A stretch of DNA of 64,000 bases from a virus (IMGVR_UViG_3300031088_000799); one strand, 5' to 3'. Numbered from the stretch's first letter, positions 1,014-44,520 are shown. Notes: generated from the sequence alone by a model not told the origin. Made by a program: numbers and translations.

Positions 1014-1781
1014 TTAAATATTAGACATTTCATTAATTTTAATTATCGACTTATAAATATCTTTTGTAAAAATGGATTTACCTGTATTATTTTCAAAAGT
1101 GTCCAAATGAGGATGCAACGTGAAAAAAGTTTTATAAACTAAATCATCTATCGAATAATAGGATAAAGGTTTATCTGGATTTTCAAAATCTTCTGTAATA
1201 CGACCATTTTCAATCGAAACACCTAAAACACAATCAGAATAATCAGTATAAATATCATCACCATTACCCGCTTTCAGCGATAAGGCAATATTGTATTCCA
1301 TTTGAATAGCAGAAGCACTGATGAATTTACGCACTGTCCACATTTGAATAAAAAATTCGATATTGTTTAATTTGCTAGAATAACTAACATTTGTATTGTT
1401 ATTCTTAAATTTTGCAAAGTCTGGAATAAAAAAGCTTAACTTATCAATATAATCATTAAACAACACTAATGATTGCGAATCATCATGAATAGTAAAGTTT
1501 TCTTTTAAGAAAGAATCAAAATGACCGACTGAGCACATGTAACTGCTTTTAAATTCATTAATATACAAACAATGATCTTGCTCAATAATCAATGAAAGTT
1601 TACCGATAGTGTTGTTAGGCTCCAAATAAAGTTTAACACGACCATCAGATGCAGGTTCATTGCCATTCAAAGGTATTTTGTCATATTGTTTACCATCTTG
1701 AATAATGGTTTTCTTACAATTAATGTAATCACGATTAACAATATCCAACAGCATTCTTTTATGGTTTGAACATTCGGTCAT
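1014..1781 (-). CDS. Ct-motif paralog family member (C-terminus ...YKSIIKINEMSNI)
   Basis: 255-aa ORF in AT-rich DNA. C-terminal tail matches the family motif ..L..M..I. Confidence 0.55.
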   Translation of the reverse strand: MTECSNHKRMLLDIVNRDYINCKKTIIQDGKQYDKIPLNGNEPASDGRVKLYLEPNNTIGKLSLIIEQDHCLYINEFKSSYMCSVGHFDSFLKENFTIHDDSQSLVLFNDYIDKLSFFIPDFAKFKNNNTNVSYSSKLNNIEFFIQMWTVRKFISASAIQMEYNIALSLKAGNGDDIYTDYSDCVLGVSIENGRITEDFENPDKPLSYYSIDDLVYKTFFTLHPHLDTFENNTGKSIFTKDIYKSIIKINEMSNI

Positions 1782-11139: not shown

Positions 11140-11731
11140 ATGTTAACAACAAAAGAAATTGTCGAAAAAATTAAACAGAAATATGATCATTATGTAGAAG
11201 TCGGTAGTCCTTATGATCTTACGACTCATGCAGATGGTTCCAAAATACGTCTTAACCAAATTGAAAGCATTCGAATGTATAGTGGAATATTTTTAATTAA
11301 TAAATATACTTCAAAAGACTTTTTTAATATTGTATTTGAAAATAATCAAGATCAAGATTTGGAAAATCTTATAAAAATATTTAATATTTATGCTTCGTTC
11401 GATTACCTAATGTTCAGTATTAAACACAATGAATTTTCTGTGAGCAATGGATTCTTTAACGCAAATTTCGTAAAACGATCAAAACCTGTGGAAAAAAAAG
11501 AAGAAGATAGCAATCCTTATAAGACAAATTTGTGTAAAGAAATTGCCTTATCCAATGATGTCAACAACATTAGGCATGAAAGATGTTGGGTTCAGTTATA
11601 AAGAATTGTATGAAAATGTAGTTTATCCACAATTACAATCGATGATTAAAGAATCTATTGATGTAGAAATTACAAATCTTAATGAAGTGAATGAAGATAT
11701 GTTGAATTTAGTCAAAATGGCAAGAATTTAA
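11140..11731 (+). pseudogene. possible frameshifted member of the Ct-motif family (two overlapping frames; second ends ...MLNLVKMARI)
   Basis: ORFs 11140-11601 and 11543-11731 overlap in different frames. The distal one carries the family C-terminal tail. Confidence 0.35.
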
Positions 11732-11764: not shown

Positions 11765-12559
11765 TTAGATTGTTTGCATCATTAAAAGATCTATTTTATT
11801 AGACACATCCGTAGCTGACATATCCATTACAACAGCATAGATTTCAGGATGAAGATTTTTCAGATACATCATAATAAGATTATCAACGAACTCATTAACA
11901 TCAGCATCGGTTAAAACCGGACTCTTTTCAATGATATCATCAACAGTAGTCATTCCAAACAAATTGTCAGGTATTTTATAAAAAGTATTTGTATTGGTAT
12001 CATAATATAGGGAAAGATAATCTATAAATTTTAGAATAGGAAACGTTACAATTTTATTAGTTCTAGTTACTCCAAAATAACGATAAAGTTGGCACCCAGT
12101 CATATATCGATAAGAACCATTAACAGAAGACGTTATTCGACAACCATCCTTATCAAATAAAGACATAGCATAGGCAGTTCTAACAGGTTTTTCAAACATA
12201 TAAATAGAGTTTTTAGATATACTATTAGATAACATTAAAAAACGTGAAAAATGTTTATTTTTGAAAAAAATAGTAAGAGCCTGATTAAGCTCATAAATTT
12301 TTTCTCTGATCGTTTTATTGATTTCGAATAACTTGTTAAATTTGGAAAAAGCAAAAACACTATTAAGGTAAGGGGATGAAAATAATGGTTGATTAGGCGT
12401 CATCTTAAATCGTAAAAAATCCGCTCCATTGTTCGCATTTGCATTGAAAAAATCAACATGACAGCGTACATCTTCTTTGGGATCATCAAATTCCAAAAAA
12501 CTAATTTTTGAATACGATGTATTAAATGCATTTGAGAAAGCGTCTTTAATATTTTCCAT
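11765..12559 (-). CDS. Ct-motif paralog family member (...NKIDLLMMQTI)
   Basis: 264-aa ORF with the family tail. Confidence 0.55.
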   Translation of the reverse strand: MENIKDAFSNAFNTSYSKISFLEFDDPKEDVRCHVDFFNANANNGADFLRFKMTPNQPLFSSPYLNSVFAFSKFNKLFEINKTIREKIYELNQALTIFFKNKHFSRFLMLSNSISKNSIYMFEKPVRTAYAMSLFDKDGCRITSSVNGSYRYMTGCQLYRYFGVTRTNKIVTFPILKFIDYLSLYYDTNTNTFYKIPDNLFGMTTVDDIIEKSPVLTDADVNEFVDNLIMMYLKNLHPEIYAVVMDMSATDVSNKIDLLMMQTI

Positions 12560-12593
12560 AGTAAATCCTTAAAAATAATCGGTAATTCTATCA

Positions 12594-12866
12594 TTATATG
12601 AGATGCATTTCAACTAAGTTCATAATTTCATCATAATCTGAACATGAATCAAAAATACTGTCTACTAATGGTCTATTTTTCAAAAGTGCATCAATGTAAT
12701 GAAAGAATATCTCATTACCGCTTTTTGAAAAATGATCAAATCTGATCACTAACTATATATGTGAAAAATACCCATTAAATATTCGAGCAACAGCATTAAC
12801 CAATCCAACTTCAACATCAGTTAGGTTAATAACATCACCACGTTGTGAATATAAAGTTGTTGTCAT
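12594..12866 (-). pseudogene. remnant ORF: 35 codons, in-frame TAG, then the 3' end of a Ct-motif family gene (...DYDEIMNLVEMHLI). Interrupted by a solo IS right-end copy.
   Basis: One continuous frame 12866->12594 with a TAG at 12753-12755. Downstream codons are encoded by the IS right-end sequence and then a family C-terminus. Confidence 0.45.
12715..12756 (-). repeat. solo copy of the IS607-like right end (42-nt exact match to 60659-60700)
   Basis: ttaccgctttttgaaaaatgatcaaatctgatcactaactat is the reverse complement of the element's right end. It contains the TGATCA-N4-TGATCA hairpin. Confidence 0.8.
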
Positions 12867-12883
12867 GAGTTAGTGACTCCTAT

Positions 12884-13807
12884 TCAGTAAAGCAACATTT
12901 CAGCAATCTTGAAACGACCAACTAATTCTGCTTTTGGAAGATGAATTAATTGTTTTTTCTCTTTAATTGTTAATTTTTCTGCCCGGCCAATAATATCAAT
13001 AATACATTTTAAAAATTTCTTATCGAATTTTTCAAAGAGTTCATCAATAGCGGCATCCAAATCAGCAGGAAACATAGGAATCGCATATTTGAATTTAATT
13101 GAGGATAAAACAGGCAAATTAAATAAAAACCCCGGCTCAAAATCACCCTTTTTATTTTTTAATAACACAATTTCAGCTTTTGACGGAGAAAACGTAAAAG
13201 ATGCTTGTCTTCGAGCGTTTTCTGCTTTTGACATATTACCATAAAAAGATTTGCAAAGTCGTTGTTCTTTTGTATCTTTAAACGTTTTACTTTTAACAAA
13301 AAAATCTTTTAACTGTTGAGGTTGTTTAAGTTTTTCAAAATGATCAAAGAATTCAAATTCACTGGTTGATTGAATATACCTATCAATAACTTTTTCAAGA
13401 ATATGATAAGGGAAAGCTCTACCATTAATCATTTGCTCAAATAATGTCAAAATAATTTTACTTTTATCAATCTTGTCGTTAACAATAGAATAAACGGGAA
13501 GCCCATCATAAACATTACTATATAAACGAATATACTTGTTATATAGAGAATTCTTTCCTTCTTCAAGAATAATTTTAAAACCATAAGATTGATAACCACT
13601 ATTAAGATCTATTAGATAATCATTAGGGCCATATGCATTAACCAAAATACTTTTAATTTGTTTTATAATTGAGCCATATTCATCCATTATTATCTCTACT
13701 TTTTTGTTATTGATATCATCCTTACATGAATTGTCCAACCTTACAATAGAAGAACTGACTATATCAGATAATGTCATAATTTTATTTGTTGTCATAATTA
13801 GCCTCAA
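12884..13807 (-). CDS. Ct-motif paralog family member (...VGRFKIAEMLLY)
   Basis: 307-aa ORF. 4-bp overlap with the next gene. Confidence 0.5.
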   Translation of the reverse strand: MRLIMTTNKIMTLSDIVSSSIVRLDNSCKDDINNKKVEIIMDEYGSIIKQIKSILVNAYGPNDYLIDLNSGYQSYGFKIILEEGKNSLYNKYIRLYSNVYDGLPVYSIVNDKIDKSKIILTLFEQMINGRAFPYHILEKVIDRYIQSTSEFEFFDHFEKLKQPQQLKDFFVKSKTFKDTKEQRLCKSFYGNMSKAENARRQASFTFSPSKAEIVLLKNKKGDFEPGFLFNLPVLSSIKFKYAIPMFPADLDAAIDELFEKFDKKFLKCIIDIIGRAEKLTIKEKKQLIHLPKAELVGRFKIAEMLLY

Positions 13808-14586
13808 ATATGGTGCATAGCAATCAGCGTTAAATGATCATCTAGTAATGTTTTAGTTAAAGAATCAAAGGCTTCTTCATCAATATCAAATATTCTTTTA
13901 AAGTTGCTTTTAACAGAAGGTTCAATGGCATATTTCATTTTATAAAAAAATCCTGAAAGATCAGTTCTCATTTTTTGAAAACTATAAAGCGACACAGTAT
14001 CTTCCATTGAGCCAAATTTAACATACATGCAAGGATAAGAAATAAACGTATTATTTTCATATACTATCATAATTTTTGTTGATAAAAAGAATAAATTATA
14101 ATGATCTTTATACAGTTTTTTATTCAAAAAATGTATTGAATAATCTTGTTTTGCATAAAAATAAGAATGAGTGCTGTGAGAACGTATAATCCCACATTTT
14201 GGTTTAAATAATGAATGCTCTTTGCTCTGAGTCTTTTCAAATAAACTATATTTAGAAGTAAATGCCAAAAATCTATCATCAAAATCCGAAAGAATCTGCT
14301 CAGCGTCGTTACCCAATAAAGATTTTGAAAAATCATTTAAGAAATCAATACTAATATCGGTACAAATATTAATAGTTTTCTTATCTTGTCGGTTAACATA
14401 AGCATAAATGAATTTGTTTTCATTTTCAATGCATACTGTAAATTTAATGACATCAGTTAATCCATTGTCAGTTTTATGTTTAATGTGCATACGAGTCACA
14501 GTTAAACCCATCTTTTCTTTAAGCATTAGACAGAAATCTTTTTTTATAACAGTCAAATGATTAATTACTTTTTCTTTTTTTATCAT
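13804..14586 (-). CDS. Ct-motif paralog family member (...DDHLTLIAMHHI)
   Basis: 260-aa ORF with the family tail. Confidence 0.55.
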   Translation of the reverse strand: MIKKEKVINHLTVIKKDFCLMLKEKMGLTVTRMHIKHKTDNGLTDVIKFTVCIENENKFIYAYVNRQDKKTINICTDISIDFLNDFSKSLLGNDAEQILSDFDDRFLAFTSKYSLFEKTQSKEHSLFKPKCGIIRSHSTHSYFYAKQDYSIHFLNKKLYKDHYNLFFLSTKIMIVYENNTFISYPCMYVKFGSMEDTVSLYSFQKMRTDLSGFFYKMKYAIEPSVKSNFKRIFDIDEEAFDSLTKTLLDDHLTLIAMHHI

Positions 14587-15365
14587 ACTTTTAACATCTC
14601 CAAAACTTTAAAATCATTAATAGATATAGTTGAATATTGATCAAGGAAATGATCTGTAATGTTAAATTTATCAAGGTAAAAATTATATATGACAGGTGCG
14701 GTTAATAGCATAAATTTATCAATAAAAGAAATAATATCGATAGAATTATCATCAAAAAATTTAATAAATTCACCATCATTTTCAATTTCTAAAACTGAAG
14801 GTTTGATAACGTCTTCACTTTTCTTGCTAAATAGAAGAAATTCTTTATTGACTTCATCAATAAATATACGAGCTTGGCCAAAAAATAACATATTAATATT
14901 AAAATCAACAACAGGTTTAATCGTAAAATCTTTATTAATAAAATATACCATCTCAACAAAAATCAAATGCCAAGCATTGCGGTATTGAAATTTAGAATTC
15001 AGTGTAATACGTTTACCCATGATGTTTCGTTTACCACAAAAATCATCGAAATTAACAGGATCTTTAAAGATTATTTTAACAAGTGGATGCTCAAAAAATA
15101 TTGTAGTAATGTAATTTGAAATAGTCATCTGTTCAAAAGTTGGAAACATCGCTTCCATGATGTCTTTTAGAGAGTCATCAAGTACTTTTGGCGAACTGAG
15201 TTTGTTCGTCTCATTGTCATATTCAATTGTAAACAAAACAGTGTTATCAGAAAGACGAACTAAATTTAAATTTTTAAATTGATTAGAGTATACAAGCTGA
15301 TATTTATCACCAAATTGACGATGGAAGATTTCTTTTATACTATCAAATGCTATAAATTCGCTCAT
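14583..15365 (-). CDS. Ct-motif paralog family member (...INDFKVLEMLKV)
   Basis: 260-aa ORF with the family tail. Confidence 0.55.
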   Translation of the reverse strand: MSEFIAFDSIKEIFHRQFGDKYQLVYSNQFKNLNLVRLSDNTVLFTIEYDNETNKLSSPKVLDDSLKDIMEAMFPTFEQMTISNYITTIFFEHPLVKIIFKDPVNFDDFCGKRNIMGKRITLNSKFQYRNAWHLIFVEMVYFINKDFTIKPVVDFNINMLFFGQARIFIDEVNKEFLLFSKKSEDVIKPSVLEIENDGEFIKFFDDNSIDIISFIDKFMLLTAPVIYNFYLDKFNITDHFLDQYSTISINDFKVLEMLKV

Positions 15366-15416
15366 AATTAAAATCCTTAAAATAAGGAAAAATTATACCA
15401 TATAATAGAAACTAAA

Positions 15417-16253
15417 TCAATACGAAGACATTTCAGTTACAAGAACATAATCAATAAGTTCTTGCATCGAGAAATTAATGACATCGCCTAATGATTGGTG
15501 CTGTTGTAATCCAAGATTGATTCTAATGATTTCATACAATTGTAAACGAATACATTTTTCGTATTTAAATAATAATAGTTGAATATCTTCTTCACTCATA
15601 CCTTTATTAGCATCAATAAAAAATGTAAATTTAATATCAGCTAAAATAGGGACATTTAAAGTATATACAGGAACTAACTTCCCTGATGATGTTGACATAT
15701 CCAAAGACATTGTACAAATGGAGTATTGAGTTTTTTGCTTCTGATAATGATAGGGACGACGTTTCTTAGCTTTCAAACTTCTTGCTGAGTAATAAAACAT
15801 CGCCAAGTGTTTTTTTACTGTGCTTTTTGAATAAGAGTGTTCAGTGGTTAACGATGGGATAGATAAATCTTTTTGATGATAGGCAACAGTATCAAATTGT
15901 TTCCATTGATGACCCACATCAAAGAATCGTTGAATAATAGCATGTAAATAATCGATATCAACAATGCTTTCATAAAAGAGAGACTGATAGAGTTCATGAT
16001 GCTGCTCAACTGTTCCACTCATACCTACTCTTAAAAAGTTACCATTTTTAGCAGGTAAGATATGTGCATTAAGCAAAGTTTTTGAGCCTGCTTTTAACTG
16101 ACTTTTTTTATCTTTATAAATTGAGATGCCATCATGATTGTAATAGACAGGATACACATCAAAAGGTAACTCCAAGCCAGCCTCCAGCACTGTTTTCGAA
16201 TGCTCCAACAGTGGCTGACAGATTTCTTGAACATTTAATTTTGATTTAGGCAC
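15417..16253 (-). CDS. Ct-motif paralog family member (...LIDYVLVTEMSSY), start abuts the serS stop
   Basis: 278-aa ORF. Its start codon is immediately 3' of the serS stop codon. Confidence 0.5.
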   Translation of the reverse strand: MPKSKLNVQEICQPLLEHSKTVLEAGLELPFDVYPVYYNHDGISIYKDKKSQLKAGSKTLLNAHILPAKNGNFLRVGMSGTVEQHHELYQSLFYESIVDIDYLHAIIQRFFDVGHQWKQFDTVAYHQKDLSIPSLTTEHSYSKSTVKKHLAMFYYSARSLKAKKRRPYHYQKQKTQYSICTMSLDMSTSSGKLVPVYTLNVPILADIKFTFFIDANKGMSEEDIQLLLFKYEKCIRLQLYEIIRINLGLQQHQSLGDVINFSMQELIDYVLVTEMSSY

Positions 16254-17564
<1,311 letters not shown>

Positions 17565-17573
17565 CTAATTTAT

Positions 17574-18323
17574 TCAATAGTGATCAATAGTCAAAACAGG
17601 GTAATAATCCATAATCTCTTTATCTGTTAAAGTTTCTGCTTCTTTAAAGTTCATATCATATAATTGACATAATCTACCAATAATATTTGTATGGTGGAGT
17701 TCATAAAAGTTTTTGGAAAAAGTATCGACAGACTTTTGAATGGATGCTTCATTAAACTCGATGGTTTTACAGAATGAGAAATCAAGACCATAAGAAGTAA
17801 AATAAAACTGGTCATTCAGTAATAATTGATTATTTTCAAAAATGAATTTTGGAATTCTAAATACATCAAAGGTTTCAAAAGGTGTAGTAACTTTAGCATG
17901 AACAGCAAATGTCATTATTGTTGATGTGGAACTATCTTTAAATTTCAAAACACGTTTAGCATAAGGCAACACTTTGATATCAGTAATCAAATTTAAATGA
18001 GCAGATTTCTCCTTTGCTGCTGTCATATAAAGTGAAAAAGAGTCAGAACTTCGTTCTTTATAGTATTTAAGAAACTTATTATAAAGAGGGCAATATTTTT
18101 TATCTAAAATATCAATAAGCACTTTATTAACTACGGAATGATCCATTTGAACTTCACTTTCGACTTTTAAAACAAAAATAATTTTAGCTGCTTTTGTAGT
18201 GACATTAATCTGATGAACTCTTGTTCCTAATTTTATATGAAAGATAGGAGTTTCCCTCAGTTCTTTCTTAAAAAAGGGACTGATTGCTTTTACAATAGAT
18301 TGGCATAATTCATTACCTTTCAA
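17574..18323 (-). CDS. Ct-motif family member, sub-clade ending ...YYPVLTIDHY
   Basis: 249 aa. Close paralog of the next gene (TTPFETFDVFRIPKFIFENNQ vs TTPFENIIVYKTPRFIFENDK). Confidence 0.55.
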   Translation of the reverse strand: MKGNELCQSIVKAISPFFKKELRETPIFHIKLGTRVHQINVTTKAAKIIFVLKVESEVQMDHSVVNKVLIDILDKKYCPLYNKFLKYYKERSSDSFSLYMTAAKEKSAHLNLITDIKVLPYAKRVLKFKDSSTSTIMTFAVHAKVTTPFETFDVFRIPKFIFENNQLLLNDQFYFTSYGLDFSFCKTIEFNEASIQKSVDTFSKNFYELHHTNIIGRLCQLYDMNFKEAETLTDKEIMDYYPVLTIDHY

Positions 18324-18340
18324 CTTAACTTCTCCTATTG

Positions 18341-19102
18341 TTAATAACGTTCCATAACTAAAACTGGATAATATTCAAGAAATTGTTTACGGCTCCAATT
18401 TTTAAAATCGTCAAATGGGATATCATAAATTTCATGTAATTTTTTAGTAATTTCTCGATAATGATCATCATAAAACTCATCAACCATTTTTTGTATTTCA
18501 TCATTTTGATGATTACTATCAATTTCACTTTTATTCTGAAAAGTATAATCCATCTTCATTGATGAAAATTGAAAACGATCATGCAAATAGAATTTATCAT
18601 TTTCAAAAATAAATCGTGGCGTTTTATAGACAATAATATTTTCAAAAGGCGTTGTAATAATAGCATGTTTTGCAGGTTTAATCAAATAAGATCGAGACTT
18701 TGGTTCAATTTCACGATATTCATTTTGCAATAATTCAACCGATGTAATAATACCGATTTTCTTTGTCTTTTTATTTAATTGATTGATAAGTAATTGAAAT
18801 ACATCTGTACTTTCACTGCATGCAAATTTAATAAAAGCATTAAATATAGGCAAAGACGCTTCTGAATCTAAACGAATATCTATTGCTTTATCAGAATGCT
18901 GATAAATACGCCTATCTTTTAGAATAACAAAAGATAACAAAAGTTGGCCATTGAAAGAATACATTTTTAAAATGTCTTCTGACATACCACTAGGTTTTGT
19001 TATATTTAAGGTTTCTTTAAAATCAACGTTGCAATTAAGGTAATTATAAGCAAACCCCTCTAACACTCGTTTCATTTCTCTAAAAAGCACAACAGTTCTC
19101 AT
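18341..19102 (-). CDS. Ct-motif family member, sub-clade ending ...YYPVLVMERY
   Basis: 253 aa, tandem duplicate of 17574-18323. SD GAGG upstream. Confidence 0.55.
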   Translation of the reverse strand: MRTVVLFREMKRVLEGFAYNYLNCNVDFKETLNITKPSGMSEDILKMYSFNGQLLLSFVILKDRRIYQHSDKAIDIRLDSEASLPIFNAFIKFACSESTDVFQLLINQLNKKTKKIGIITSVELLQNEYREIEPKSRSYLIKPAKHAIITTPFENIIVYKTPRFIFENDKFYLHDRFQFSSMKMDYTFQNKSEIDSNHQNDEIQKMVDEFYDDHYREITKKLHEIYDIPFDDFKNWSRKQFLEYYPVLVMERY

Positions 19103-19120
19103 ATTACAACCTCATCAAAT

Positions 19121-19855
19121 TTAAATATTAGCCATCGCAGCTAACTGAATATAACGCACCAGATCTTCATCTGTTATTGTTTTTGGATCAAGAGCAATTT
19201 TTAATTCGCTTCGAATTTTAGAAATAGTGGAAGAACGCACCACATTATAGATTTCTTTTTCCAAATTAATATAAAAATTTTCATTATTCGCTAATAATGC
19301 TGGATGTGAACTAATAATACGATCTGAATAGTCTACTGAATATCGAAACCTTAAATCTAGATGTAGTTCATTGTTATAAATCGTAAACACATGTTCAGAG
19401 AAAATAGCTGTATCAACTAAACCAAAATCTACACGAGCGAGTAATGTCCCATTCATTTTTTTAAATTCATTAACATCATTAAATTTCATTGATTTAAATG
19501 CATTAAACAACCTGTGTTCTGGGATGATTTCAATAGCATTATGAATATTAAATTTTTGTTTTACGTCTGTAAATATCTGAAACACTTTTGAATAGTGATT
19601 AACATCACGTTTAGCATATCTCATAATATCTAACATTTGTTTAGTTGATTCTTCATAATGATAAATATTTAATACTGGCAAAATACCAGATCGTTCATTG
19701 GTGTAAACAATAAATAGCTGAACCATTTGCTTACCATCATGATGGCTAACTGTAAATGTAGGGTTAATAGCTGGCATATTATCGACAACTACATCCATAT
19801 TAAAATGGTCTTTAAAAAATCTTGTTAGCACTGGAATCACATTGTCTTTAAGCAT
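19121..19855 (-). CDS. Ct-motif paralog family member (...DEDLVRYIQLAAMANI)
   Basis: 244 aa. The sequence taatagaggttgttATG gives an SD 8 nt upstream of the ATG. Confidence 0.6.
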   Translation of the reverse strand: MLKDNVIPVLTRFFKDHFNMDVVVDNMPAINPTFTVSHHDGKQMVQLFIVYTNERSGILPVLNIYHYEESTKQMLDIMRYAKRDVNHYSKVFQIFTDVKQKFNIHNAIEIIPEHRLFNAFKSMKFNDVNEFKKMNGTLLARVDFGLVDTAIFSEHVFTIYNNELHLDLRFRYSVDYSDRIISSHPALLANNENFYINLEKEIYNVVRSSTISKIRSELKIALDPKTITDEDLVRYIQLAAMANI

Positions 19856-19866
19856 AACAACCTCTA

Positions 19867-20676
19867 TTAAATGTTTGACATGTCGATAATATCAAGATAT
19901 TTTTTAAACAATTCTGGTGTTACTGTTGTTAAATCAACATCCATATCTGTAAATTTTTTTTGAATTCGCGTTTTAAAATATTCATAAAAAAAAGAATACA
20001 TCTCATCAGGAGTTAACACAATAGTTCCATCACTATTTGGTTCGTAGACTAAAATATAATCTTCACCATTACCATAAAACATAAAAGTAGCTTGATCAAA
20101 AAACATTGCAATCAACTGAAATGTTGTTGTAAATTTATCATCTTCAAAATTTAAAGTGTTCTTACATTTAAATTTTAACTGCTTCTCCTTTATCAAGGGG
20201 CGAATGATTTCTTTATAATCAATATTATTCAAAAGAAGACTAAAAGATTCTTTCATGCTTGTAGCTTCATAATGATTCAGTAAAAGAGATCGATTAAATT
20301 CAATAACATCATCTTGAACAAGAAGCCCAATATCCAGCCCAGCTTTGATATAGCTATTATGAATTTTTTCTATATAATTGAAGTCAATATTAAAAATAGA
20401 TGACAAATAATGAATAGTCCGTTCTGTTTTAACTCTTTCATCCATCGTATTAATTGAAAATAGAATTTTATAATCTGGATTATTACCCGTTTTCTCATTA
20501 GCCATTTGTTCGATATGTAACAAATCACCCAAAGAATGCGGAATAGTCAACATACTAAGAATTTTGCCACTGAATGGCTCAGAAACATTGATGGTGGCTT
20601 GTTCATAAAGAAAACCAGTAGATATCAGTTTTTCTTCGTATGATAAACGAAAACTATTAAGAAATTCGGTATCCAT
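19867..20676 (-). CDS. Ct-motif paralog family member (...KKYLDIIDMSNI)
   Basis: 269 aa. Confidence 0.6.
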   Translation of the reverse strand: MDTEFLNSFRLSYEEKLISTGFLYEQATINVSEPFSGKILSMLTIPHSLGDLLHIEQMANEKTGNNPDYKILFSINTMDERVKTERTIHYLSSIFNIDFNYIEKIHNSYIKAGLDIGLLVQDDVIEFNRSLLLNHYEATSMKESFSLLLNNIDYKEIIRPLIKEKQLKFKCKNTLNFEDDKFTTTFQLIAMFFDQATFMFYGNGEDYILVYEPNSDGTIVLTPDEMYSFFYEYFKTRIQKKFTDMDVDLTTVTPELFKKYLDIIDMSNI

Positions 20677-20717
20677 AAAATCCTCTTAAATAATGCCGAT
20701 TATAACATAAAAAGAGT

Positions 20718-21452
20718 TTAAATTTCAATCATTTTATAGAGTTCAATAGCTTTTTTAACGACTTCTTCTGATTGTCCGACAATTTGTATTTCGACCTTAT
20801 TAAGAATCTCTTCATGAATAGTATCAATCAATAGAGAATAGAAAAGTTCTTCTAATTCATCTTCTTTGTAATAAGTTCCACCATGAAAATACACATCGTT
20901 ATTGCTAGAAAATACAAAATGACCATCAGTAAAACCAAAATAAGTTCTAGCTGTATGATACAATTTACCATCTGTCGTTAAGTTTGTTGTAAAGTTGTTT
21001 AATCGAGAGACTTTTTTAGAGCAAAAAGGTCGAATAAATCCAAGATCAACATGAAAAAATTTATTAGGAACATACTGATGATAGAATGTTGCGTTATAAG
21101 TTTGTGCATCAATCGATTCATCTTCAATATAAAGACCAAGACGAAGCCCAACTCTTTTTTGAATAGTATCAAGGGTGTGATGTTTTGAAAAATCTAAAGA
21201 TATAAAAGATAATTCTTCTTTTAAAATACTATTTTTATCTCCAACTTTAAAAGTTTTTTCGTTTGGAATTAAATCAATGACCAATCGATAAGGTAGCTCA
21301 TTAAAAAAAGAAAAGATCAAAAAATAATGATTAGATTTCATTTTGAGCACAGAAACACTAGGTGACTGTTCATTTGAATAAAAGGAATAGCCACCAGCAC
21401 TCAAATTAGTGCCATAATGACTTAAAAATTTATTAACAATATCTTTAAACAT
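20718..21452 (-). CDS. Ct-motif paralog family member (...KKAIELYKMIEI)
   Basis: 244 aa. Confidence 0.55.
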   Translation of the reverse strand: MFKDIVNKFLSHYGTNLSAGGYSFYSNEQSPSVSVLKMKSNHYFLIFSFFNELPYRLVIDLIPNEKTFKVGDKNSILKEELSFISLDFSKHHTLDTIQKRVGLRLGLYIEDESIDAQTYNATFYHQYVPNKFFHVDLGFIRPFCSKKVSRLNNFTTNLTTDGKLYHTARTYFGFTDGHFVFSSNNDVYFHGGTYYKEDELEELFYSLLIDTIHEEILNKVEIQIVGQSEEVVKKAIELYKMIEI

Positions 21453-21461
21453 AAACCATCC

Positions 21462-22277
21462 TTAGATCATAACCATTTCAATAATTTTTAATTGGTCTTT
21501 AAACTGTTCGTTAAATTCAATATCCATGCTTATATTAGATTTTTTCAAAATTTTATTAAGATCTCCTTGAATAATCAACTGACGCTCTTTCTTTATATAA
21601 TTAAACAATTCATCTTTAGTCATATTAATATTATTACAAAGATAAGTGCCTTTCTTATAATCAAGAGAAATAGAAATATTTCGTTTGGGAGCTAACATAA
21701 GTTCAAAATAATATCTGACATCAATATTCATTTCATCATCAAAACATAGTTTTAAATTAATAGGTATCTTAATTTTAGACTTTTTATGGAGTTTCTTATA
21801 AAAGGTTTTATATTTTAGTTCATAAGTAACCAGCATATGCTCCAATGTCAGGAAAAAATCAGAATTACAAAATGAAATGTTATTATAACATTTTAATGTC
21901 TGAATAGAATCATAATTAAAGTCATCTTTTTGAAGAAAATCGAAAATTTCATAAACTTTACTATAATCAATGGGAACAAATGGAATAATTGACAACATCT
22001 TTTTATAGTCAGCCAAATCATAAACTGAGCGATTTTCATCAATGTAATTAAGTTCGATAGTTTTTTGTTCTGGATCAATTACAATTTGATAATATGAATG
22101 ATCTTCAAATTCAAAACAAACCTCTGAGCGTAAATCAGAAGAATAACCATATGAAACAAACTCATCGCTCATTACACCATTTGGAATGGCGTTTTGAATA
22201 ATAGGGCAATATTTCTGTATGAATAGAGAAGTATAACGAACCATATCAGCGTATAAAGATCCCATATTACACCTCAA
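21462..22277 (-). CDS. Ct-motif paralog family member (...KDQLKIIEMVMI)
   Basis: 271 aa. Confidence 0.55.
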   Translation of the reverse strand: MRCNMGSLYADMVRYTSLFIQKYCPIIQNAIPNGVMSDEFVSYGYSSDLRSEVCFEFEDHSYYQIVIDPEQKTIELNYIDENRSVYDLADYKKMLSIIPFVPIDYSKVYEIFDFLQKDDFNYDSIQTLKCYNNISFCNSDFFLTLEHMLVTYELKYKTFYKKLHKKSKIKIPINLKLCFDDEMNIDVRYYFELMLAPKRNISISLDYKKGTYLCNNINMTKDELFNYIKKERQLIIQGDLNKILKKSNISMDIEFNEQFKDQLKIIEMVMI

Positions 22278-22881
22278 TCATTTCACAAAGAGTTAAATGG
22301 TCACGAATAGTTGTGGAAGGCAAAGCAGAAAATTCCTTCTTAGTCATTCTCAAATGCGTTGATTTTTTAACAATATAATGAATCGAACCCATTGTTTCTA
22401 CATAACATAGATTCAATAATTCATCCATAGTAATTATTTTATGGTATTCAATAAATGCTTCTGGACTACTATAAGCCATCCAAATTTCACCAGTTTTCAG
22501 ATTAAACCAGAGATCTTTTTTGTTCATCAAATGAACAGGCCAGCAAAGTCTTAGAAATACGCCATATTGAGTTGTTGGAGTGCCATTGATATTAGCAACG
22601 AACTCAATATCAAATCGATAAAAAAGAATAGAAGTTTTGGCGATTTTACCACTACTTGATTTACGGCGATAAGCAGGAGTATAAGCTATTCGTTCAAAAT
22701 TCTTAGACTGAGCTTTAATATAGCTAAAAGTAGGCTCAAAACCATTTTCTATTAAACGATTCATAAATTTATCAACCGAAAAACCATCATCAATAAAAGC
22801 ACCCAATTCAACGCTTTTAGAAAAAGCAGCCTGAATAAATGTTTTTACCTGTGTATAGTCAAATAAATTTAAGTCTTGCAT
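22267..22881 (-). CDS. Ct-motif paralog family member (...RDHLTLCEMIEV)
   Basis: 204 aa. 11-nt overlap with the upstream gene. Confidence 0.55.
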   Translation of the reverse strand: MQDLNLFDYTQVKTFIQAAFSKSVELGAFIDDGFSVDKFMNRLIENGFEPTFSYIKAQSKNFERIAYTPAYRRKSSSGKIAKTSILFYRFDIEFVANINGTPTTQYGVFLRLCWPVHLMNKKDLWFNLKTGEIWMAYSSPEAFIEYHKIITMDELLNLCYVETMGSIHYIVKKSTHLRMTKKEFSALPSTTIRDHLTLCEMIEV

Positions 22882-23144: not shown

Positions 23145-23301
23145 ATATGAATCCTCATGTAATTAGACTATCTGGTTGAGCCTTAAATATATCAATAATT
23201 TTTTTTATTGTCAATACCTTTAAAATATGCAAATCGGAAAACAAACAAATTGACAGGATTGTCATTTTTTTGATAGAATATAGCACATTTAACAGAGGTG
23301 T

Positions 23302-27972: not shown

Positions 27973-28788
27973 TCAAATAATATGCATTGATAATAAATCC
28001 AAGAAACGAGATTTTACATCATTGTCTAATGTCTGAAAAGATTCAACAGTTTCACCCAACTCTTTTTCCAGCATTAAACAAACCTCTTTATCAAAAAAAG
28101 CCTCAATCGCTGATTTAATATCAACACAAATGCGATCAGCCGTATTATTTCTTAAAGTAATGCATATTGATTTACGACAATTAACAGGAATATACATGTT
28201 ATATTTAAAATCAATAACTCCATCAATATAAACTAAATTGAAGTGGACTTTAAAAAAAGGTGAATAAAGATTATTTGCCATGTTTTCATATAAGACAAAA
28301 ATAGGTTTACTGTAATTGGTGGAGAGCGTATGTTCTTTGCAATAAACTATATCACCATCCTTGAATTGATTGTTAACAAATTCAATAGGATCTTGAAAAT
28401 TATAATAATTATCAAAGAACCGATATTGAACGCCTAAATCTGCATAAATTTTGTTAACTTTTGCAAGTAAATCAATATCTAAAAGACTTTTAAAAGACTC
28501 ATTGTAATCTAATATTTTATCATTTTTGGACATATGTATATTAAGCATTTCATTGCCTAAAAGATCAAAAATAAACGTAAATAGCATTCCATCAACACTA
28601 GAAGCTGTCGTAATCACCTTATGACTTTTTGCTTTAAAAATAATACTCGCCACCATAGGACTTGCGGGCGATAACTTACATTCTTCTTCATGAGTTTCTT
28701 CTTGAATAGAAATAAATTCAAGATTCTTTCTTGAAAGAAATGACATCATTGATTGTTTAAAGTCTTCGAACTTAATAGATTCACTCAT
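27973..28788 (-). CDS. Ct-motif paralog family member (...KSRFLDLLSMHII)
   Basis: 271 aa. Confidence 0.55.
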   Translation of the reverse strand: MSESIKFEDFKQSMMSFLSRKNLEFISIQEETHEEECKLSPASPMVASIIFKAKSHKVITTASSVDGMLFTFIFDLLGNEMLNIHMSKNDKILDYNESFKSLLDIDLLAKVNKIYADLGVQYRFFDNYYNFQDPIEFVNNQFKDGDIVYCKEHTLSTNYSKPIFVLYENMANNLYSPFFKVHFNLVYIDGVIDFKYNMYIPVNCRKSICITLRNNTADRICVDIKSAIEAFFDKEVCLMLEKELGETVESFQTLDNDVKSRFLDLLSMHII

Positions 28789-29564
28789 ATCATTTTCATC
28801 TCGGCTAATGTAATGTATCTTGTTAAATCATCTGAATCTTTTGACAATTCATTTTTATCCAGCTTAAGCAATTTCATTAAAATGGTACGTAAACGACGAA
28901 AAGCATAACGTTTCATGTGGTTATATAATTGATCTTCATTAACCAATTTATAATTTTTTCGAGAACGACCTATAGAATCTTTGGTTGAAATGGTACTAAT
29001 TCGCATTTCTAGATCACCATTAATAGGTTTGGTCAACTCCAATCTAACAACATGCTTAAAATAAACAATAAAATCAATGTTAACTAATAAGGTAGGTCTT
29101 TCTTTAAAATTAAAATGGCTACTACAAAATATTTTTTGATTATCCTTGATGTAATCTTGTCTATAAAAAGAAGGTCTATCATAATTGTTTAATGTTGTCA
29201 GGTCAACAGAAATATGAGACTCTTCTATATTTGGAAACTGATTTAAGCTTTTTTCGTATGAAATATAATCAAATAAATGATATTTATCAAAAATTTTAGC
29301 AACATTTGAAATCATACTAATGACATAATTCAATTGTAATCCAAAGTAATTATAAAAATGTTCCATCTCTGGTTTATTAGCTCTAATATAAAAACTATCT
29401 TTATTTGCATTACAAAAAAAACGGTTATTCGGAGCATCATAATGACGATAACGAGGTAACAAATCACTCAGATGATGTTCATGGGCAAATGGCATCACAG
29501 ATGACAAATGCTTTTGAAATGCTACAACATTATTAACAGTTTGTTCAGTGGGTATGTTTTTCAT
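28785..29564 (-). CDS. Ct-motif paralog family member (...DLTRYITLAEMKMI)
   Basis: 259 aa. Confidence 0.6.
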   Translation of the reverse strand: MKNIPTEQTVNNVVAFQKHLSSVMPFAHEHHLSDLLPRYRHYDAPNNRFFCNANKDSFYIRANKPEMEHFYNYFGLQLNYVISMISNVAKIFDKYHLFDYISYEKSLNQFPNIEESHISVDLTTLNNYDRPSFYRQDYIKDNQKIFCSSHFNFKERPTLLVNIDFIVYFKHVVRLELTKPINGDLEMRISTISTKDSIGRSRKNYKLVNEDQLYNHMKRYAFRRLRTILMKLLKLDKNELSKDSDDLTRYITLAEMKMI

Positions 29565-29572: not shown

Positions 29573-30280
29573 CTAAATACTATCCATAGCCAATAGTGTC
29601 ATAAATCGGCCAATATCTTCAAATTCAGCTTCCTGAATATCTTTCTTTGTAAACGTCTTAATTCGCTTAGTGGTTAACAAACAGATGATTCGTTGACGAA
29701 TAGCTTTTTTAATAATGTTATCAACTTCTTCCATATTGAAGCCTGTACTGATTGGAACCAAAAAACGTTCCTTACGAGCCAATGGCAATTCAACAAGAAT
29801 ATTAGGTTCAAAAATATCACCTGTCACATTCACCTGCATTGAAACTCTAACAGTTGGGTAAACTTCATAATATTTTCTAACAGTATAAATAGTTTCCTTA
29901 TTAGCAATAACATTTCTATCCTTCAAAGGAATAATCATATCTAGAAAACGATTATCTGAGCGAAAGTTTTCAATATCAAATGTTGGCATATTAGCCACAG
30001 TGGTAGTTAACTCTGTATTGTTCATATGTTCCATGTATCGATCTATGATTTGTCGAATACAACTCAAATCTAAATAGAATAGAGAATAAATTTCTTTAAC
30101 CATATCAAGTGGTAACGAAGTAATGTCAACATTAAATTTATTTTTACACAACTTATTTAAAATAATATAATGTTGATAACTATCTAATTCAAAAGGAAAT
30201 TTCTGAATTGAAGATCTATTATCATCAAATAATTCAAAATCTTTGATATATTGATAAATGCGTTCTTTAAAGTCTTTCAT
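29573..30280 (-). CDS. Ct-motif paralog family member (...DIGRFMTLLAMDSI)
   Basis: 235 aa. Confidence 0.6.
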   Translation of the reverse strand: MKDFKERIYQYIKDFELFDDNRSSIQKFPFELDSYQHYIILNKLCKNKFNVDITSLPLDMVKEIYSLFYLDLSCIRQIIDRYMEHMNNTELTTTVANMPTFDIENFRSDNRFLDMIIPLKDRNVIANKETIYTVRKYYEVYPTVRVSMQVNVTGDIFEPNILVELPLARKERFLVPISTGFNMEEVDNIIKKAIRQRIICLLTTKRIKTFTKKDIQEAEFEDIGRFMTLLAMDSI

Positions 30281-31020
30281 TAAATTTTATCCATGCTGAT
30301 AACGGTTAAGTATTGTTTCAAGGTTTCTTCATCAAAAGTAATCACATCAGAGCATTCATCAGGATAACGATCAATCAGAAAAGCTTTGAATTCACTCATT
30401 ACACCTAATTTAACAACTTGTTCAGCTACTGAATACAAATTATCATTGCCTAGAATTACTGAAAAATAGCCTTCTTCTGATAATGGGAATGTTAATTTTG
30501 CTCGCGGCTCGATGACTCCATTTTGATAATACAAAAATAATTGAATAAAAATACGTGAATCTCGTAAGTTCAAGCCGCCACTAAATTCTTTTGAATAGTA
30601 ATTTGCACCAGAAGCAATTCCAAAAAATGAGTCATACTTTGCTGCAAATTCTTCACAAAAATTAGCTTTAACATAAAAATGATTATAAGTATGCAATTTA
30701 AATTCACGCATACCTTCCATGTAAGATTTGCAAATGCTTTCTACTTTTTCAAAATCGAAGCCTAATTTTTTATAAATTTCACGCTCTACCTGTGAAAATT
30801 TACCAGAGAATACATAAATGACAGAATAATCTTTAAAAAAATTATTATCAACATTCAAGGAAGTAAAATGGTCTAACTCTGACCATGTAGATTTAAATTT
30901 TTTCAATTTTAAAGTTGTTGGATGCAGACCTCTAAATAGTAACTCATCATTATCGAAAGCAAATGCATTCAATGCAGAAATAATGTTATCTAATCCGCTG
31001 TTCTGTTCACTCATTTTCAA
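30280..31020 (-). CDS. Ct-motif paralog family member (...TLKQYLTVISMDKI)
   Basis: 246 aa. Confidence 0.6.
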   Translation of the reverse strand: MKMSEQNSGLDNIISALNAFAFDNDELLFRGLHPTTLKLKKFKSTWSELDHFTSLNVDNNFFKDYSVIYVFSGKFSQVEREIYKKLGFDFEKVESICKSYMEGMREFKLHTYNHFYVKANFCEEFAAKYDSFFGIASGANYYSKEFSGGLNLRDSRIFIQLFLYYQNGVIEPRAKLTFPLSEEGYFSVILGNDNLYSVAEQVVKLGVMSEFKAFLIDRYPDECSDVITFDEETLKQYLTVISMDKI

Positions 31021-39112: not shown

Positions 39113-39751
39113 TCAGATTGAAAGCATTTCCATTGTCATAAGTAATGATTCATAGTCCATAGATTCTGCATCTACCTGATATTTTAAATCATCTGGAATA
39201 TCATCAAATTTACTTTTTAGCAAAGCTTTAAATGCATTTCTTTGATCAAATGCTCCATGTCCCATAAAAATATCACCTTTACTAAAATAATCTGATTTAT
39301 AAATATTACATTTTTCATTTTCTTCATATAAAAAGAATGTTCCAACATTTTTATCAAAATTAATGCAATGGTGAAAACCATGATGCCAACGAAGAAGAAT
39401 GCGGCTAGGCTTTAACACATCATGAATCACATTAGAGTCATAATAAATGTAGACAGTACAACCAAAATTATTCGTATGAGACATAGGATAATTAAGCATC
39501 TTTGAAAACGAATTATACTTTTCCATAAAACGTAAGCTGTATTCAAAGCAAGAGTGTGTTGTAACACCATTGGTTTTTAAAATATCATTAACCAAATCAT
39601 ACCAACCAGAATAAGAACCATCTTTAACAATTCTTTTATTTTTCCAGTAAAAATGAAATCTGTTTACTTTATATTTTGAAGGTGTTTTAAAATTAATAGT
39701 ACTGTCATGCTTAACATAATGTGAGCTAAGTAATTTGTCGAATTTTTTCAT
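39113..39751 (-). CDS. Ct-motif paralog family member (...YESLLMTMEMLSI)
   Basis: 212 aa. Confidence 0.55.
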   Translation of the reverse strand: MKKFDKLLSSHYVKHDSTINFKTPSKYKVNRFHFYWKNKRIVKDGSYSGWYDLVNDILKTNGVTTHSCFEYSLRFMEKYNSFSKMLNYPMSHTNNFGCTVYIYYDSNVIHDVLKPSRILLRWHHGFHHCINFDKNVGTFFLYEENEKCNIYKSDYFSKGDIFMGHGAFDQRNAFKALLKSKFDDIPDDLKYQVDAESMDYESLLMTMEMLSI

Positions 39752-44492: not shown

Positions 44493-44520
44493 AAAAAGAG
44501 GCTTCGGCCTCTTTCTTATT
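44493..44520 (+). terminator. intrinsic terminator agaggcttcggcctct + T-run
   Basis: GC stem with a tetraloop-like ttcg. Confidence 0.65.

Follow-up and report, generated by a model that had tools for sequence, protein, structure and literature searches.

In phiKZ-like jumbo phages, the head and inner-body proteins include strongly diverged paralogues encoded in tandem arrays; these are many proteins of 200–500 aa encoded on the same strand, less than 20% identical to each other, with orthologues kept between related phages. The ankyrin proteins of poxviruses and giant viruses carry a C-terminal PRANC (F-box-like) motif, which is helical and docks to one partner. Known C-terminal cargo signals include encapsulin cargo-loading peptides, microcompartment encapsulation peptides, and the C-terminal helix-loop-helix of phage scaffolding proteins, and Dot/Icm (type IVB) effectors have acidic, hydrophobic-ended C-terminal translocation signals. 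Here we analyzed a protein family encoded in a 64-kb, AT-rich stretch (30% GC) of an uncultivated genome, hereafter called the window.

The same-strand tandem organization, the extreme divergence, and the retention of orthologues resemble the phiKZ-like arrays, whereas the family had no PHROG or fold match, has a conserved C-terminal ending instead of an N-terminal propeptide with protease sites, and is surrounded by genes for translation and DNA metabolism, with sigma-70-like promoter-like sites upstream. As with the PRANC proteins, a large, probably viral multigene family has a variable part followed by a short conserved helical C-terminal module; however, no ankyrin, F-box, or PRANC match was obtained, the expression signals are prokaryotic, and the body is predicted to be one globular alpha/beta domain rather than a repeat. 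Shell cargo signals are likewise short amphipathic helices at the chain end, fixed in position relative to the terminus, but they occur on unrelated cargo with flexible linkers and adjacent shell genes, whereas the carriers here are homologous, the helix is modelled within the fold, and shell genes were not seen in 84 kb. The Dot/Icm signals have in common with the tail a hydrophobic residue at -3 or -4 and acidic residues 10–17 positions before the end, but are loose, unstructured, and borne by hundreds of unrelated proteins of bacteria that carry the secretion genes, in contrast to the helix here, which is strictly conserved, belongs to one family, and is encoded in a probably viral genome. 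The T4 MotA C-terminal domain, frataxin-like folds, and secretion-chaperone-like two-layer alpha/beta folds were also counted as close.

Size and placement of the family

Among the 84 ORFs of at least 90 aa in the window, 30 had Met at position -4 from the C-terminus, where about 2.5 were expected (binomial P ~2e-24 at an overall Met frequency of 3%), and each other position from -1 to -11 carried Met in 0–6 ORFs. The small membrane protein at 27040–27477 and the Pol-beta-like protein at 41176–42270 were rejected as members, their Met at -4 being a chance match. The family comprised 29 intact members (185–307 aa), 28 of them on the minus strand, together with a frameshifted copy and a truncated remnant (Table 1). 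The intact members occupy 21.7 kb (34% of the window) and make up 39% of its non-nested ORFs, and the flanking 20 kb holds seven more. The original prediction of about 30 members, nearly all on the minus strand, was borne out, and its clusters at 27973–31020, 44516–46491, and 48758–50265 and its isolated copies were all found. It had also placed 13 members around serS in the run 11765–22881; serS does lie inside, but only 12 members of the run are intact, plus the remnant. The member at 61313–61966 was absent from its list.

Table 1. Positions of family members and associated features in the window
Feature	Position	Strand	Length (aa)	C-terminal end	Remarks
Isolated member	1014..1781	-	255	...IKINEMSNI	
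Frameshifted member	11140..11731	+		...DMLNLVKMARI, stop	Two frames; just outside the run
Member	11765..12559	-	264	...IDLLMMQTI	Orthologue L002 18600–19430
Truncated remnant	12594..12713	-	40	...IMNLVEMHLI, three stops	C-terminal part
Member	12884..13807	-	307	...FKIAEMLLY	TTG start; true start uncertain
Member	13804..14586	-	260	...LTLIAMHHI	
Member	14583..15365	-	260	...FKVLEMLKV	
Member	15417..16253	-	278	...VLVTEMSSY	L096 orthologue 30% identical, full length
serS (seryl-tRNA synthetase)	16254..17558	-			TIGR00414, 481.6 bits; non-member inside the array in all relatives
Member	17574..18323	-	249	...PVLTIDHY	Met replaced by Ile
Member	18341..19102	-	253	...PVLVMERY	
Member	19121..19855	-	244	...YIQLAAMANI	AlphaFold-modelled
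Member	19867..20676	-	269	...YLDIIDMSNI	
Member	20718..21452	-	244	...IELYKMIEI	
Member	21462..22277	-	271	...LKIIEMVMI	Start probably a few codons downstream
Member	22267..22881	-	204	...LTLCEMIEV	First gene of long run; AlphaFold-modelled
Sigma-70-like promoter site	23186..23214	-			TTGACA-17-TATATT, with TG; upstream of run
Member	27973..28788	-	271	...FLDLLSMHII	
Member	28785..29564	-	259	...YITLAEMKMI	
Member	29573..30280	-	235	...FMTLLAMDSI	
Member	30280..31020	-	246	...YLTVISMDKI	
Isolated member	36557..37414	-	285	...LKLFEMINI	
Isolated member	39113..39751	-	212	...LMTMEMLSI	
Member	42302..43060	+	252	...VKLKEMIYI	Sole intact plus-strand member; P0007
Member	44516..45136	-	206	...DDEKRAIIMFYQ	Short-tail variant
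Member	45146..45808	-	220	...KSEKQIVKMYYY	Short-tail variant
Member	45808..46491	-	227	...KQEQDLIKMVYF	Short-tail variant
Member	47340..47897	-	185	...EAERDLVRMVCI	Short-tail variant
Member	48758..49378	-	206	...ADELQVFLMYVI	
Member	49375..50265	-	296	...YFSLLMMESI	TTG start uncertain
Isolated member	52295..53104	-	269	...NMLFDMTKI	
Isolated member	56159..56905	-	248	...REQAIIAMTYI	Short-tail variant
Isolated member	61313..61966	-	217	...SLVLEMALC	

Searches of family libraries, PDB sequences, and folds gave no match to the family, no member matched PHROGs or PADLOC, and 1.84 billion representative proteins included no relatives beyond its own lineage. As had been claimed, this is a real and large family that is undescribed, and none of these searches placed it in a well-characterised family.

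The C-terminal tail

The tail is modelled as the last helix, in which an S/T-x-x-E capping box is followed by L-x-x-M-x-x-(I/Y/V)-COOH; acidic residues lie between -11 and -17, and positions -4 and -1 are hydrophobic. The stretch before the helix varied in both sequence and length. Of the 29 paralogues, 28 had Met at -4, as did all intact tails of close-relative orthologues that were read, save two with Ile (L089 14571–15341 and 18296–19102). The exceptional paralogue, at 17574–18323, is 32% identical to that at 18341–19102, and its L002 orthologue keeps Met. In a more distant relative, two tails were one residue longer and 4 of 11 had Ile at the expected Met. That the distance from Met to the C-terminus is near-fixed in sequences so divergent favours a constraint acting on the chain end as such, and the extra residues and Ile of the distant relative indicate that this constraint is strong, not absolute. 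In the DNA, ATG alone was invariant and synonymous sites were free to vary. Because the conservation is on the protein and not on the DNA, recent duplication or gene conversion is excluded, so the tail is no artefact of recent duplication and the members are, as originally stated, not near-identical DNA copies. A tail-binding partner was not found in the 84 kb examined.

Homology and fold of the bodies

The paralogues were 10–20% identical to each other, BLASTP linked only two pairs, and pairwise profile comparisons were mostly not significant (median hhalign probability 0.2%). End-to-end pairs were the member at 17574 with that at 19121 (232 columns) and 12884–13807 with 15417–16253 (hhalign probability 91%). 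The top-scoring pairs in the profile comparisons were neighbours or near-neighbours, which fits tandem duplication. In leave-one-out profiles, from which the closest paralogue was also removed, success was defined as ranking the member over all 44 non-members. Using the N-terminal 50 aa only, 8 of 29 members ranked first, the middle only gave 6 of 29 first and 15 of 29 in the top three, and residues -70 to -20 only gave 6 of 29 first and 17 of 29 in the top three, compared with about 0.6 of 29 first by chance. These results point to a weak, statistical homology over the whole length that does not depend on the tail.

The AlphaFold model of 22267–22881 had a moderate pLDDT of 72.6 (pTM 0.69), and that of 19121–19855 was poor overall (pLDDT 58) with values of 88–91 in the C-terminal helices. 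Both showed the same order of elements: an N-terminal helix, a β-sheet with a long hairpin, a long helix, and the terminal helix. The C-terminal helix-linker-helix was confidently predicted in both, and the tail was modelled within it, not as a linker-attached peptide. The members were soluble by composition (negative GRAVY, pI 4.4–9.2), reading of their sequences by eye gave no signal-peptide-like N-termini, and no polar residue was conserved across the family. The bodies had been described as extremely divergent, which they are, and the family as defined only by the tail, which is not supported because tail-less profiles still find members; these profiles, the common AlphaFold layout, and the syntenic orthologues under purifying selection described below speak against a tag on hyper-variable bodies.

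Relatives and selection

The array with its embedded serS was syntenic in relatives (L002, L089, and L096), every paralogue having its own orthologue, and syntenic orthologues were present in four independent assemblies; for 22267–22881, ten orthologues were 61–84% identical. Between genomes with 90% identical SerRS, aligned family orthologues were 42–67% identical with a dN/dS of 0.17–0.44 and no excess change anywhere, and in an IMG/VR relative with 76% identical SerRS they were 21–35% identical. As judged from these alignments, the family is old and evolves fast while under purifying selection, rather than being a repertoire with rapid turnover. Some gain and loss of members occurred between relatives. 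Signs of gene death were the remnant, the frameshifted copy, and members of relatives that are missing in the window; conversely, the member at 1014–1781 is missing at the syntenic position in the IMG/VR relative. The remnant, located in the 324-bp gap 12560–12883, is 62.5% identical to the C-terminus of the protein at L002 17787–18578 (E 1.7e-10). In tblastn, the protein at L002 19495–20106 matched 11143–11553 and 11513–11731 in different frames, the shift being near 11545.

Neighbouring genes and nature of the genome

About 85% of the genes were orphans. A SohB-like S49 peptidase gene (215.6 bits as SohB, against 26.9 bits as head-maturation protease) adjoined the array in the window and in relatives, and the window and flanks also encode the bacterial-type HflK-like, BI-1/YccA, PspC, and DsbA proteins, full-length TyrRS and SerRS, a ThrRS without editing domains, and a LigA scoring under the curated cut-off. 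The SerRS was nearest to Gammaproteobacteria, with a best match of only 53–54% among 185,579 GTDB species. Within the phage collection searched, the Pol-beta-like protein had homologues in jumbo and huge phages only, and a phage-like set consisted of PNKP-HAD, HAD_SAK_2, R2K ATP-grasp, deoxyribosyltransferase, NUDIX, and a weak MazG-type match (PRA-PH) slightly under the Pfam cut-off. The genome is probably most like that of a huge phage, with expression signals of bacterial type. IMG/VR classes a 437-kb relative as viral, and other relatives are located on contigs of 1,843,594 and 1,859,102 bp. This huge-phage-like look contrasts with the size of those two contigs, about 1.85 Mb, and which functions are plausible depends on whether the genome is that of a phage or a bacterium.

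Possible functions of the family

We tentatively favour a single old, lineage-restricted family with one shared alpha/beta domain, whose members would be non-enzymatic binding or adaptor proteins with the Met-bearing last helix as a contact surface. It may have grown by tandem duplication with occasional gene death. The N-terminal helix, long helix, and terminal helix would form the conserved scaffold, the intervening sheet and loops having diverged nearly past recognition. Since no polar residue is conserved family-wide, the members are probably non-enzymatic, and a binding or adaptor role is the best reading of the absence of catalytic signatures. Since relatives retain a separate orthologue of each paralogue, each would have a distinct role, most likely by binding a different target. 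Because Met is nearly invariant and its distance from the chain end near-fixed, the helix end may be a conserved contact surface, either for self-association among members or for one common partner. It is unlikely that the helix is instead an autonomous targeting or docking signal that routes the proteins through their free C-termini to one machine, such as a capsid or other protein shell, a secretion system, or a protease. That reading would suit a Met-to-COOH distance unchanged in 28 of 29 paralogues despite their different lengths and otherwise diverged sequences and shared by nearly all intact close-relative tails (two have Ile), a Met without the Leu/Ile substitution usual for a plain core residue, the variable segment before the helix, and the SohB-like gene beside the array. 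However, the helix was modelled in a confident helix-linker-helix and not on a disordered linker, the bodies are homologous so that a common ending needs no explanation of its own, one-residue extensions are tolerated in a relative, and the upstream promoter-like sites are sigma-70-like, as for non-structural genes; moreover, none of about 30 neighbouring proteins could be recognised as a shell, secretion-system, or C-terminus-binding (PDZ, TPR) protein.

A structural or virion-internal role in a huge phage would also fit same-strand tandem arrays of very diverged paralogues, each orthologous in conserved synteny, and the phage-like gene content nearby and the adjoining S49 peptidase agree with this. 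We nevertheless consider it improbable, given that no member matches PHROGs, which we assume to cover phiKZ-like virion proteins, that capsid, portal, terminase, and tail genes are absent from the 84 kb seen, that translation and DNA-metabolism genes surround the arrays, that the promoter-like sites include no distinct late type, and that the peptidase fits SohB far better than a head-maturation protease. It is more doubtful still that the genome belongs to an intracellular bacterium reduced to about 1.85 Mb and that the family is its repertoire of secreted effectors, with the tail as a translocation signal. The distant SerRS match, the orphan genes, the features of ThrRS and LigA, the distribution of the Pol-beta-like homologues, the phage-like set, and the viral classification of the 437-kb relative all speak against a bacterium, a strictly conserved helix on homologous proteins is unlike known secretion signals, and secretion-system genes were not seen; in its favour are the two contigs of that size, the bacterial-type proteins and full-length synthetases, the Gammaproteobacteria-like SerRS, the sigma-70 promoter-like and intrinsic-terminator-like sites, and the acidic and hydrophobic tail positions. 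Least probable is an arms-race repertoire of anti-defence or orphan immunity proteins driven to diversify by positive selection: small, soluble, non-enzymatic proteins in tandem arrays that evolve fast compared with SerRS and are gained and lost to some degree would be expected of it, but synteny and one-to-one orthology persist to 76% SerRS identity, dN/dS shows no excess change at any point, PADLOC gave no match, and no toxin gene adjoins the arrays.

Gene spacing and expression signals

Gaps between neighbouring members of the arrays were -11 to +51 bp, save the 324-bp gap with the remnant, and an SD-like core preceded 40 of 74 genes, whereas 6% of random 15-mers contained one. Sigma-70 promoter-like and intrinsic-terminator-like sites were present in the window and flanks. 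The extended -10 sequence TGnTATAAT was located 22–30 nt upstream of the first genes of the family arrays, ligA, the Pol-beta-like gene, and a 633-aa gene. If the genome is that of a phage, this type of site, common to synthetase, ligase, nucleotidyltransferase, and family genes, suggests transcription by the host RNA polymerase. Such sites also occurred within the long run, upstream of 20676, 15365, and 12559, so the description of the clusters as co-transcribed arrays is only partly right. Between the promoter site at 23186–23214 and the first member lie a terminator-like hairpin (22948–22969) and a small ORF, called as 51 aa in other assemblies, and a TGGTATGAT site is nearer to 22881 than that promoter site.

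Size of the family and its conserved C-terminal tail

Among the 84 ORFs of at least 90 aa in the window, 30 had Met at position -4 (the fourth residue from the C-terminus), and 0–6 ORFs had Met at any other position from -1 to -11. Against an overall Met frequency of 3% this excess had a binomial P of 2e-24, showing that the conserved-tail family of the original prediction is real. Two of the 30 were chance matches, one a small membrane protein and the other a Pol-beta-like protein, and the ORF at 17574–18323 has Ile in place of Met at -4 yet is a true member. The family thus defined had 29 intact members of 185–307 aa, 28 of them on the minus strand, which covered 34% of the window and accounted for 39% of its non-nested ORFs; outside the window, three members were found in the 10-kb left flank and four in the 10-kb right flank. 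All positions originally given for clusters and isolated copies held and every listed copy was present, but a member at 61313–61966 had been missed. Of the 13 members previously counted in the long run at 11765–22881, 12 were intact and accompanied serS (16254–17558), and the thirteenth proved to be a 40-aa C-terminal remnant.

The tail profile was hydrophobic at -13, -10/-9, -7 (27 of 29 members), -6, and -1 (Ile, Tyr, or Val in 26 of 29); position -5 was often Glu, and an S/T-x-x-E/D box preceded the conserved end. In a sub-group with a helix one turn shorter, the tail followed the pattern T/S-x-x-E-(K/R/Q)-x-Φ-Φ-x-M-Φ-(Y/C)-Φ, and the tail of the member at 48758 resembled this variant in a less regular form. 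At the codon level, ATG alone was invariant in the tail DNA and synonymous positions were free, which indicates that the tail signal acts on the protein and is not the product of recent duplication or an RNA element. Free synonymous positions also ruled out gene conversion as the source of the shared tail and confirmed that members are not near-identical duplicates at the DNA level. A Shine-Dalgarno or translational-coupling role for the conserved Glu-Met (GAG ATG) was rejected, because isolated copies without a downstream gene retained the Met and because position -5 varied while ATG did not. An additional ORF at 3147–3782 (plus strand, 211 aa) ends in VLDMIKIS, with Met at -5, and was excluded from the family count. 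The family profiles did not pick it up; it may be a strongly diverged member whose tail is one residue longer, like two tails of the distant relative L096 (IMGVR_UViG_3300031133_000383).

Homology of members outside the tail

BLASTP among the members linked only two pairs, and among the 406 member pairs compared by hhalign, three reached a probability of at least 90% and seven of at least 20%. The best profile–profile pairs were neighbors or near-neighbors, and some of these alignments ran end to end. Clearer evidence came from leave-one-out profiles, built without the member under test or its nearest paralogue, with which each member was scored against 44 non-member ORFs. Profiles of the N-terminal 50 aa, the middle segment, and residues -70 to -20 placed 8, 6, and 6 of the 29 members, respectively, above all non-members (about 0.6 expected by chance), and 11, 15, and 17 of the 29 in the top three (about 1.9 expected by chance). 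With the closest paralogue retained, 13 of the 29 members were recognized after removal of either the final 20 or the final 60 residues.

AlphaFold models were obtained for the members at 22267–22881 (pLDDT 72.6, pTM 0.69) and 19121–19855 (pLDDT 58, pTM 0.47). Both had the same layout: an N-terminal helix leads into a set of strands with one long hairpin, followed by a helix of roughly 22 residues, a linker, and finally a terminal helix of roughly 15 residues. The C-terminal helix-linker-helix was among the most confident parts (block means 71–90 and 71–91). The profile homology outside the tail and the common order of elements in the two models suggested that the family is a single diverged domain, with the tail as its predicted last helix. 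The original view of a tag carried by unrelated bodies was therefore an over-reading.

Searches for known relatives

None of the 29 members had a significant match in Pfam, PHROGs, NCBIfam, or PADLOC; single spurious matches appeared at E = 0.0046, and the first ten members were additionally scanned at looser values of up to 1 (Pfam) and 0.1 (PHROGs). Family and orthologue profiles found nothing among PDB sequences. The structural comparison called for in the original prediction yielded the shared layout of the two modeled members and no known family, since Foldseek returned nothing from PDB or BFVD at E ≤ 0.001. HMMER was run in full against 1.84 billion representative proteins and gave eight matches, all of the lengths of the window members, although the family profile scored true members at just -13 to 45 bits in the leave-one-out setting, such that distant members elsewhere would fall short of significance. 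A word-indexed search with the 29-member profile found orthologues of three members only, and an iterative search seeded with the clearest member pair did not grow. In 50,697 phage records there was no match to the long run (11-kb DNA search) or to one member (tblastn). Scans of GTDB species genomes and IMG/VR found no family, a weak absence because the back-translated patterns fitted one orthologue only, and the literature offered nothing useful on similar families or on phages larger than 1 Mb. The family is undescribed, as originally proposed, and, as far as sequence methods reach, confined to one lineage.

Orthologous arrays in related contigs

By exact look-ups, proteins of the window were traced to a contig of 520,353 bp. 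An orthologous array with serS in the same place was present in two large contigs, L002 (ENA ERZ27281805 k141_522346; 1,843,594 bp) and L089 (JGI Ga0308158_10000001; 1,859,102 bp). The more distant L096 (437,043 bp, 30.3% GC), listed as viral in IMG/VR, also carried an orthologous array with serS so placed, and the synteny of the window was reproduced further along that contig. SerRS of the window was 90% identical to that of L002 and 76% identical to that of L096; aligned family orthologues showed 42–67% identity with L002 or L089, and 21–35% with L096, where most of the length could still be aligned. For one member, ten orthologues were 61–84% identical and had a conserved core motif of their own. 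The dN/dS values of aligned family orthologues were 0.17–0.44, with dS saturated, and the rate of change in the tail was not consistently below that of the body. In L096 the endings were relaxed, with Ile for Met in 4 of 11 tails.

Some members of L002 and L089 are absent from the window or survive there merely as a remnant or in frameshifted form, and the copy at 1014–1781 is missing in L096. These comparisons pointed to an old expansion by tandem duplication with modest turnover, whose copies are each maintained under purifying selection and evolve about five times faster than SerRS. The original prediction had raised a diversified repertoire, for example of anti-defense, effector, or immunity proteins. 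One-to-one orthologues in syntenic arrays, the low dN/dS, and the modest turnover do not form an arms-race pattern, and no toxin domain, expected next to polymorphic-toxin immunity arrays, was found among the neighbors. L096 also contains, at 1928–6087, four tandem paralogues of 277–427 aa ending in Y(F/Y)YY-x-(V/I)CRKP(V/I), a further expansion in which the C-terminus is conserved; this family is absent from the window.

Expression signals

The expression signals of the window are prokaryotic. A Shine-Dalgarno-like core lay upstream of 40 of 74 genes, compared with 6% of random sites, and overlapping stop and start codons and intrinsic-terminator-like hairpins were present. TGnTATAAT promoter-like sites preceded many of the first genes, whether these were family members or not, and the family arrays shared these sigma-70-type sites with neighboring synthetase and DNA-metabolism genes. 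The plus-strand genes at 33216, 37818, and 48033, and the gene at 9662, lacked a Shine-Dalgarno sequence and had a TATAAT-like site a short way upstream, suggesting very short leaders. This set of signals rejected a eukaryotic giant virus; the mimivirus early motif AAAATTGA was not clearly enriched in the window. The genetic code was standard, and intact ORFs with ordinary stops (TAA 48, TGA 21, TAG 5) excluded an alternative code. A Borg-like element was rejected since there were no tandem repeats.

Possible function of the family

The members are soluble, with weak whole-length similarity, one predicted layout, and no conserved polar residue; they are of tandem origin and conserved at the orthologue level. 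They may be non-enzymatic proteins, each with its own role, most likely the binding of a distinct target. The register from Met to the chain terminus is nearly fixed, which hints at a conserved contact at the end of the helix that would serve either self-association or the binding of one shared partner. It is unlikely, in our estimation, that the fixed-register helix (…Φ-Φ-x-M-x-x-Φ-COOH) is a new sorting or docking signal that sends dozens of paralogues, perhaps hundreds genome-wide, to a single machine or compartment of a phage-like replicon on the megabase scale.

The tail as an autonomous signal for cargo loading, secretion, or degradation has its best argument in the strictness of the Met and the chain end, but this reading was weakened by the homologous bodies and by a helix modeled as integral to the fold. 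A shell-cargo signal of the encapsulin, microcompartment, or scaffold type would place the same peptide on unrelated cargo, and the carriers here are weakly homologous outside the tail; nor did any of about 30 neighboring proteins or the 20-kb flanks give a Pfam or PHROG match to a shell or capsid gene. Secreted effectors of the Dot/Icm type would be accompanied by type IVB secretion genes, none of which were seen in the approximately 84 kb read, out of a genome that spans 0.5 Mb or more. For ankyrin-PRANC or F-box adaptor families, no F-box or PRANC motif was matched at the C-terminus in Pfam (ten members at E ≤ 1, all 29 at E ≤ 0.01). For phiKZ-like virion paralogues, homology to head or inner-body proteins was sought without a PHROG match or a BFVD fold match, and the promoter-like sites were sigma-70-like. 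Neither the virion nor the arms-race reading passed every test run here, and the effector reading appears unlikely.

One orphan family accounts for about 39% of genes over at least 84 kb and is kept gene for gene in related genomes, with no detectable sequence or fold relatives; this makes it clearly central to the lineage's biology. The family is real, striking, and undescribed, of moderate to high interest in itself and of higher interest if the genome is a megabase-scale phage. Should the invariant Met-bearing end serve as a docking surface, the members would amount to a natural binder library on one scaffold and would point to a hub protein. If the tail is merely the last core helix, this would still be a new fold-level family, of ordinary interest as another lineage-specific expansion in a large viral genome.

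Gene content and nature of the genome

The window and its flanks encode tyrS, serS, thrS without editing domains (the three synthetases within 64 kb), tRNA-Lys, and tRNA-Pro, together with NUDIX, deoxyribosyltransferase, PNKP-HAD, HAD_SAK_2, and R2K ATP-grasp proteins. Weak matches to PRA-PH (MazG-type), just below the Pfam cut-off, and to a 2OG-Fe(II) oxygenase, also below it, were found. SohB-like peptidase, Band-7, BI-1, PspC, and DsbA proteins were also encoded, the first three being membrane-protease-related proteins of bacterial type that are uncommon in phage.

Other features of the window
Feature	Position	Strand	Remarks
tyrS	5058–6332
Second orphan family, 633 aa	7761–9662	-	38% identical over 315 aa to the 733-aa protein; no Pfam or PHROG match
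Second orphan family, 733 aa	23302–25503	+	As for the 633-aa protein
SohB-like S49 peptidase	9803–10699	-	Adjoins family array here and in relatives
Frameshifted member copy	11140–11731	+
C-terminal remnant of member, 40 aa	12594–12713		Within long run
Four tandem paralogues, 145–160 aa	25616–27477	+	26–33% identical
Band-7/HflK-like protein	31530–32435	-
tRNA-Lys and tRNA-Pro	37464–37664
Pol-beta-family/nucleotidyltransferase-like, 364 aa	41176–42270	+	phrog_24943
ThrRS, 404 aa	43269–44483	+	Matches TIGR00418 from position 161 on; N-terminal TGS and editing domains missing
Short-tail sub-group	44516–46491, 47340, 56159		Assigned by tail pattern
BI-1/YccA-like protein	46617–47270	-
NAD-dependent DNA ligase (ligA), very diverged	50336–52210	-	318 bits vs curated cut-off 444; adenylation domain 68 bits
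TnpB-like protein, 661 aa, unusually long	58666–60651	+	guided_TnpB 46 bits; TIGR01766 domain 42 bits
Extended -10 site (TG-G/T-TATAAT)	Upstream of 9662, 15365, 20676, 31429, 41176, 46491, 52210, 56905, and others		22–30 nt before start codon, usually just after terminator-like hairpin

The host genome is probably that of a huge phage or phage-like element, an unusual bacterium being the less likely alternative. Contigs of approximately 1.85 Mb and the envelope-type genes point toward a cellular genome. Toward a non-cellular one point the IMG/VR relative, genes matched so far only in jumbo phages, the truncated ThrRS, orphans amounting to about 85% of genes, and the lack of a close GTDB genome: the best SerRS match among 185,579 GTDB species was 53–54%, with Gammaproteobacteria at the top of the list. 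Within the phage collection, homologues of the Pol-beta-like protein (30–35% identical) occurred in jumbo or huge phages only, including metagenomic phages of 636–735 kb. The two large contigs do not fit any known phage. They would exceed by a factor of 2.5 the largest records in our phage searches, uncultured phages of 735 kb. Close relatives on two independently assembled contigs of approximately 1.85 Mb, and a more distant one of 437 kb, leave three options: a prokaryotic virus far larger than those known, a small host chromosome carrying a huge prophage, or a bacterium of a very unusual kind. Deciding among them would either push the known sizes of prokaryotic viruses upward or uncover such a bacterium.

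Judged by reading their C-terminal sequences, the four tandem paralogues look like small membrane proteins. Homologues of the second orphan family were found on short contigs, and a different metagenome (SRR22103699) contained eight or more head-to-tail paralogues of 578–659 aa, at 638–14561 of contig L095.
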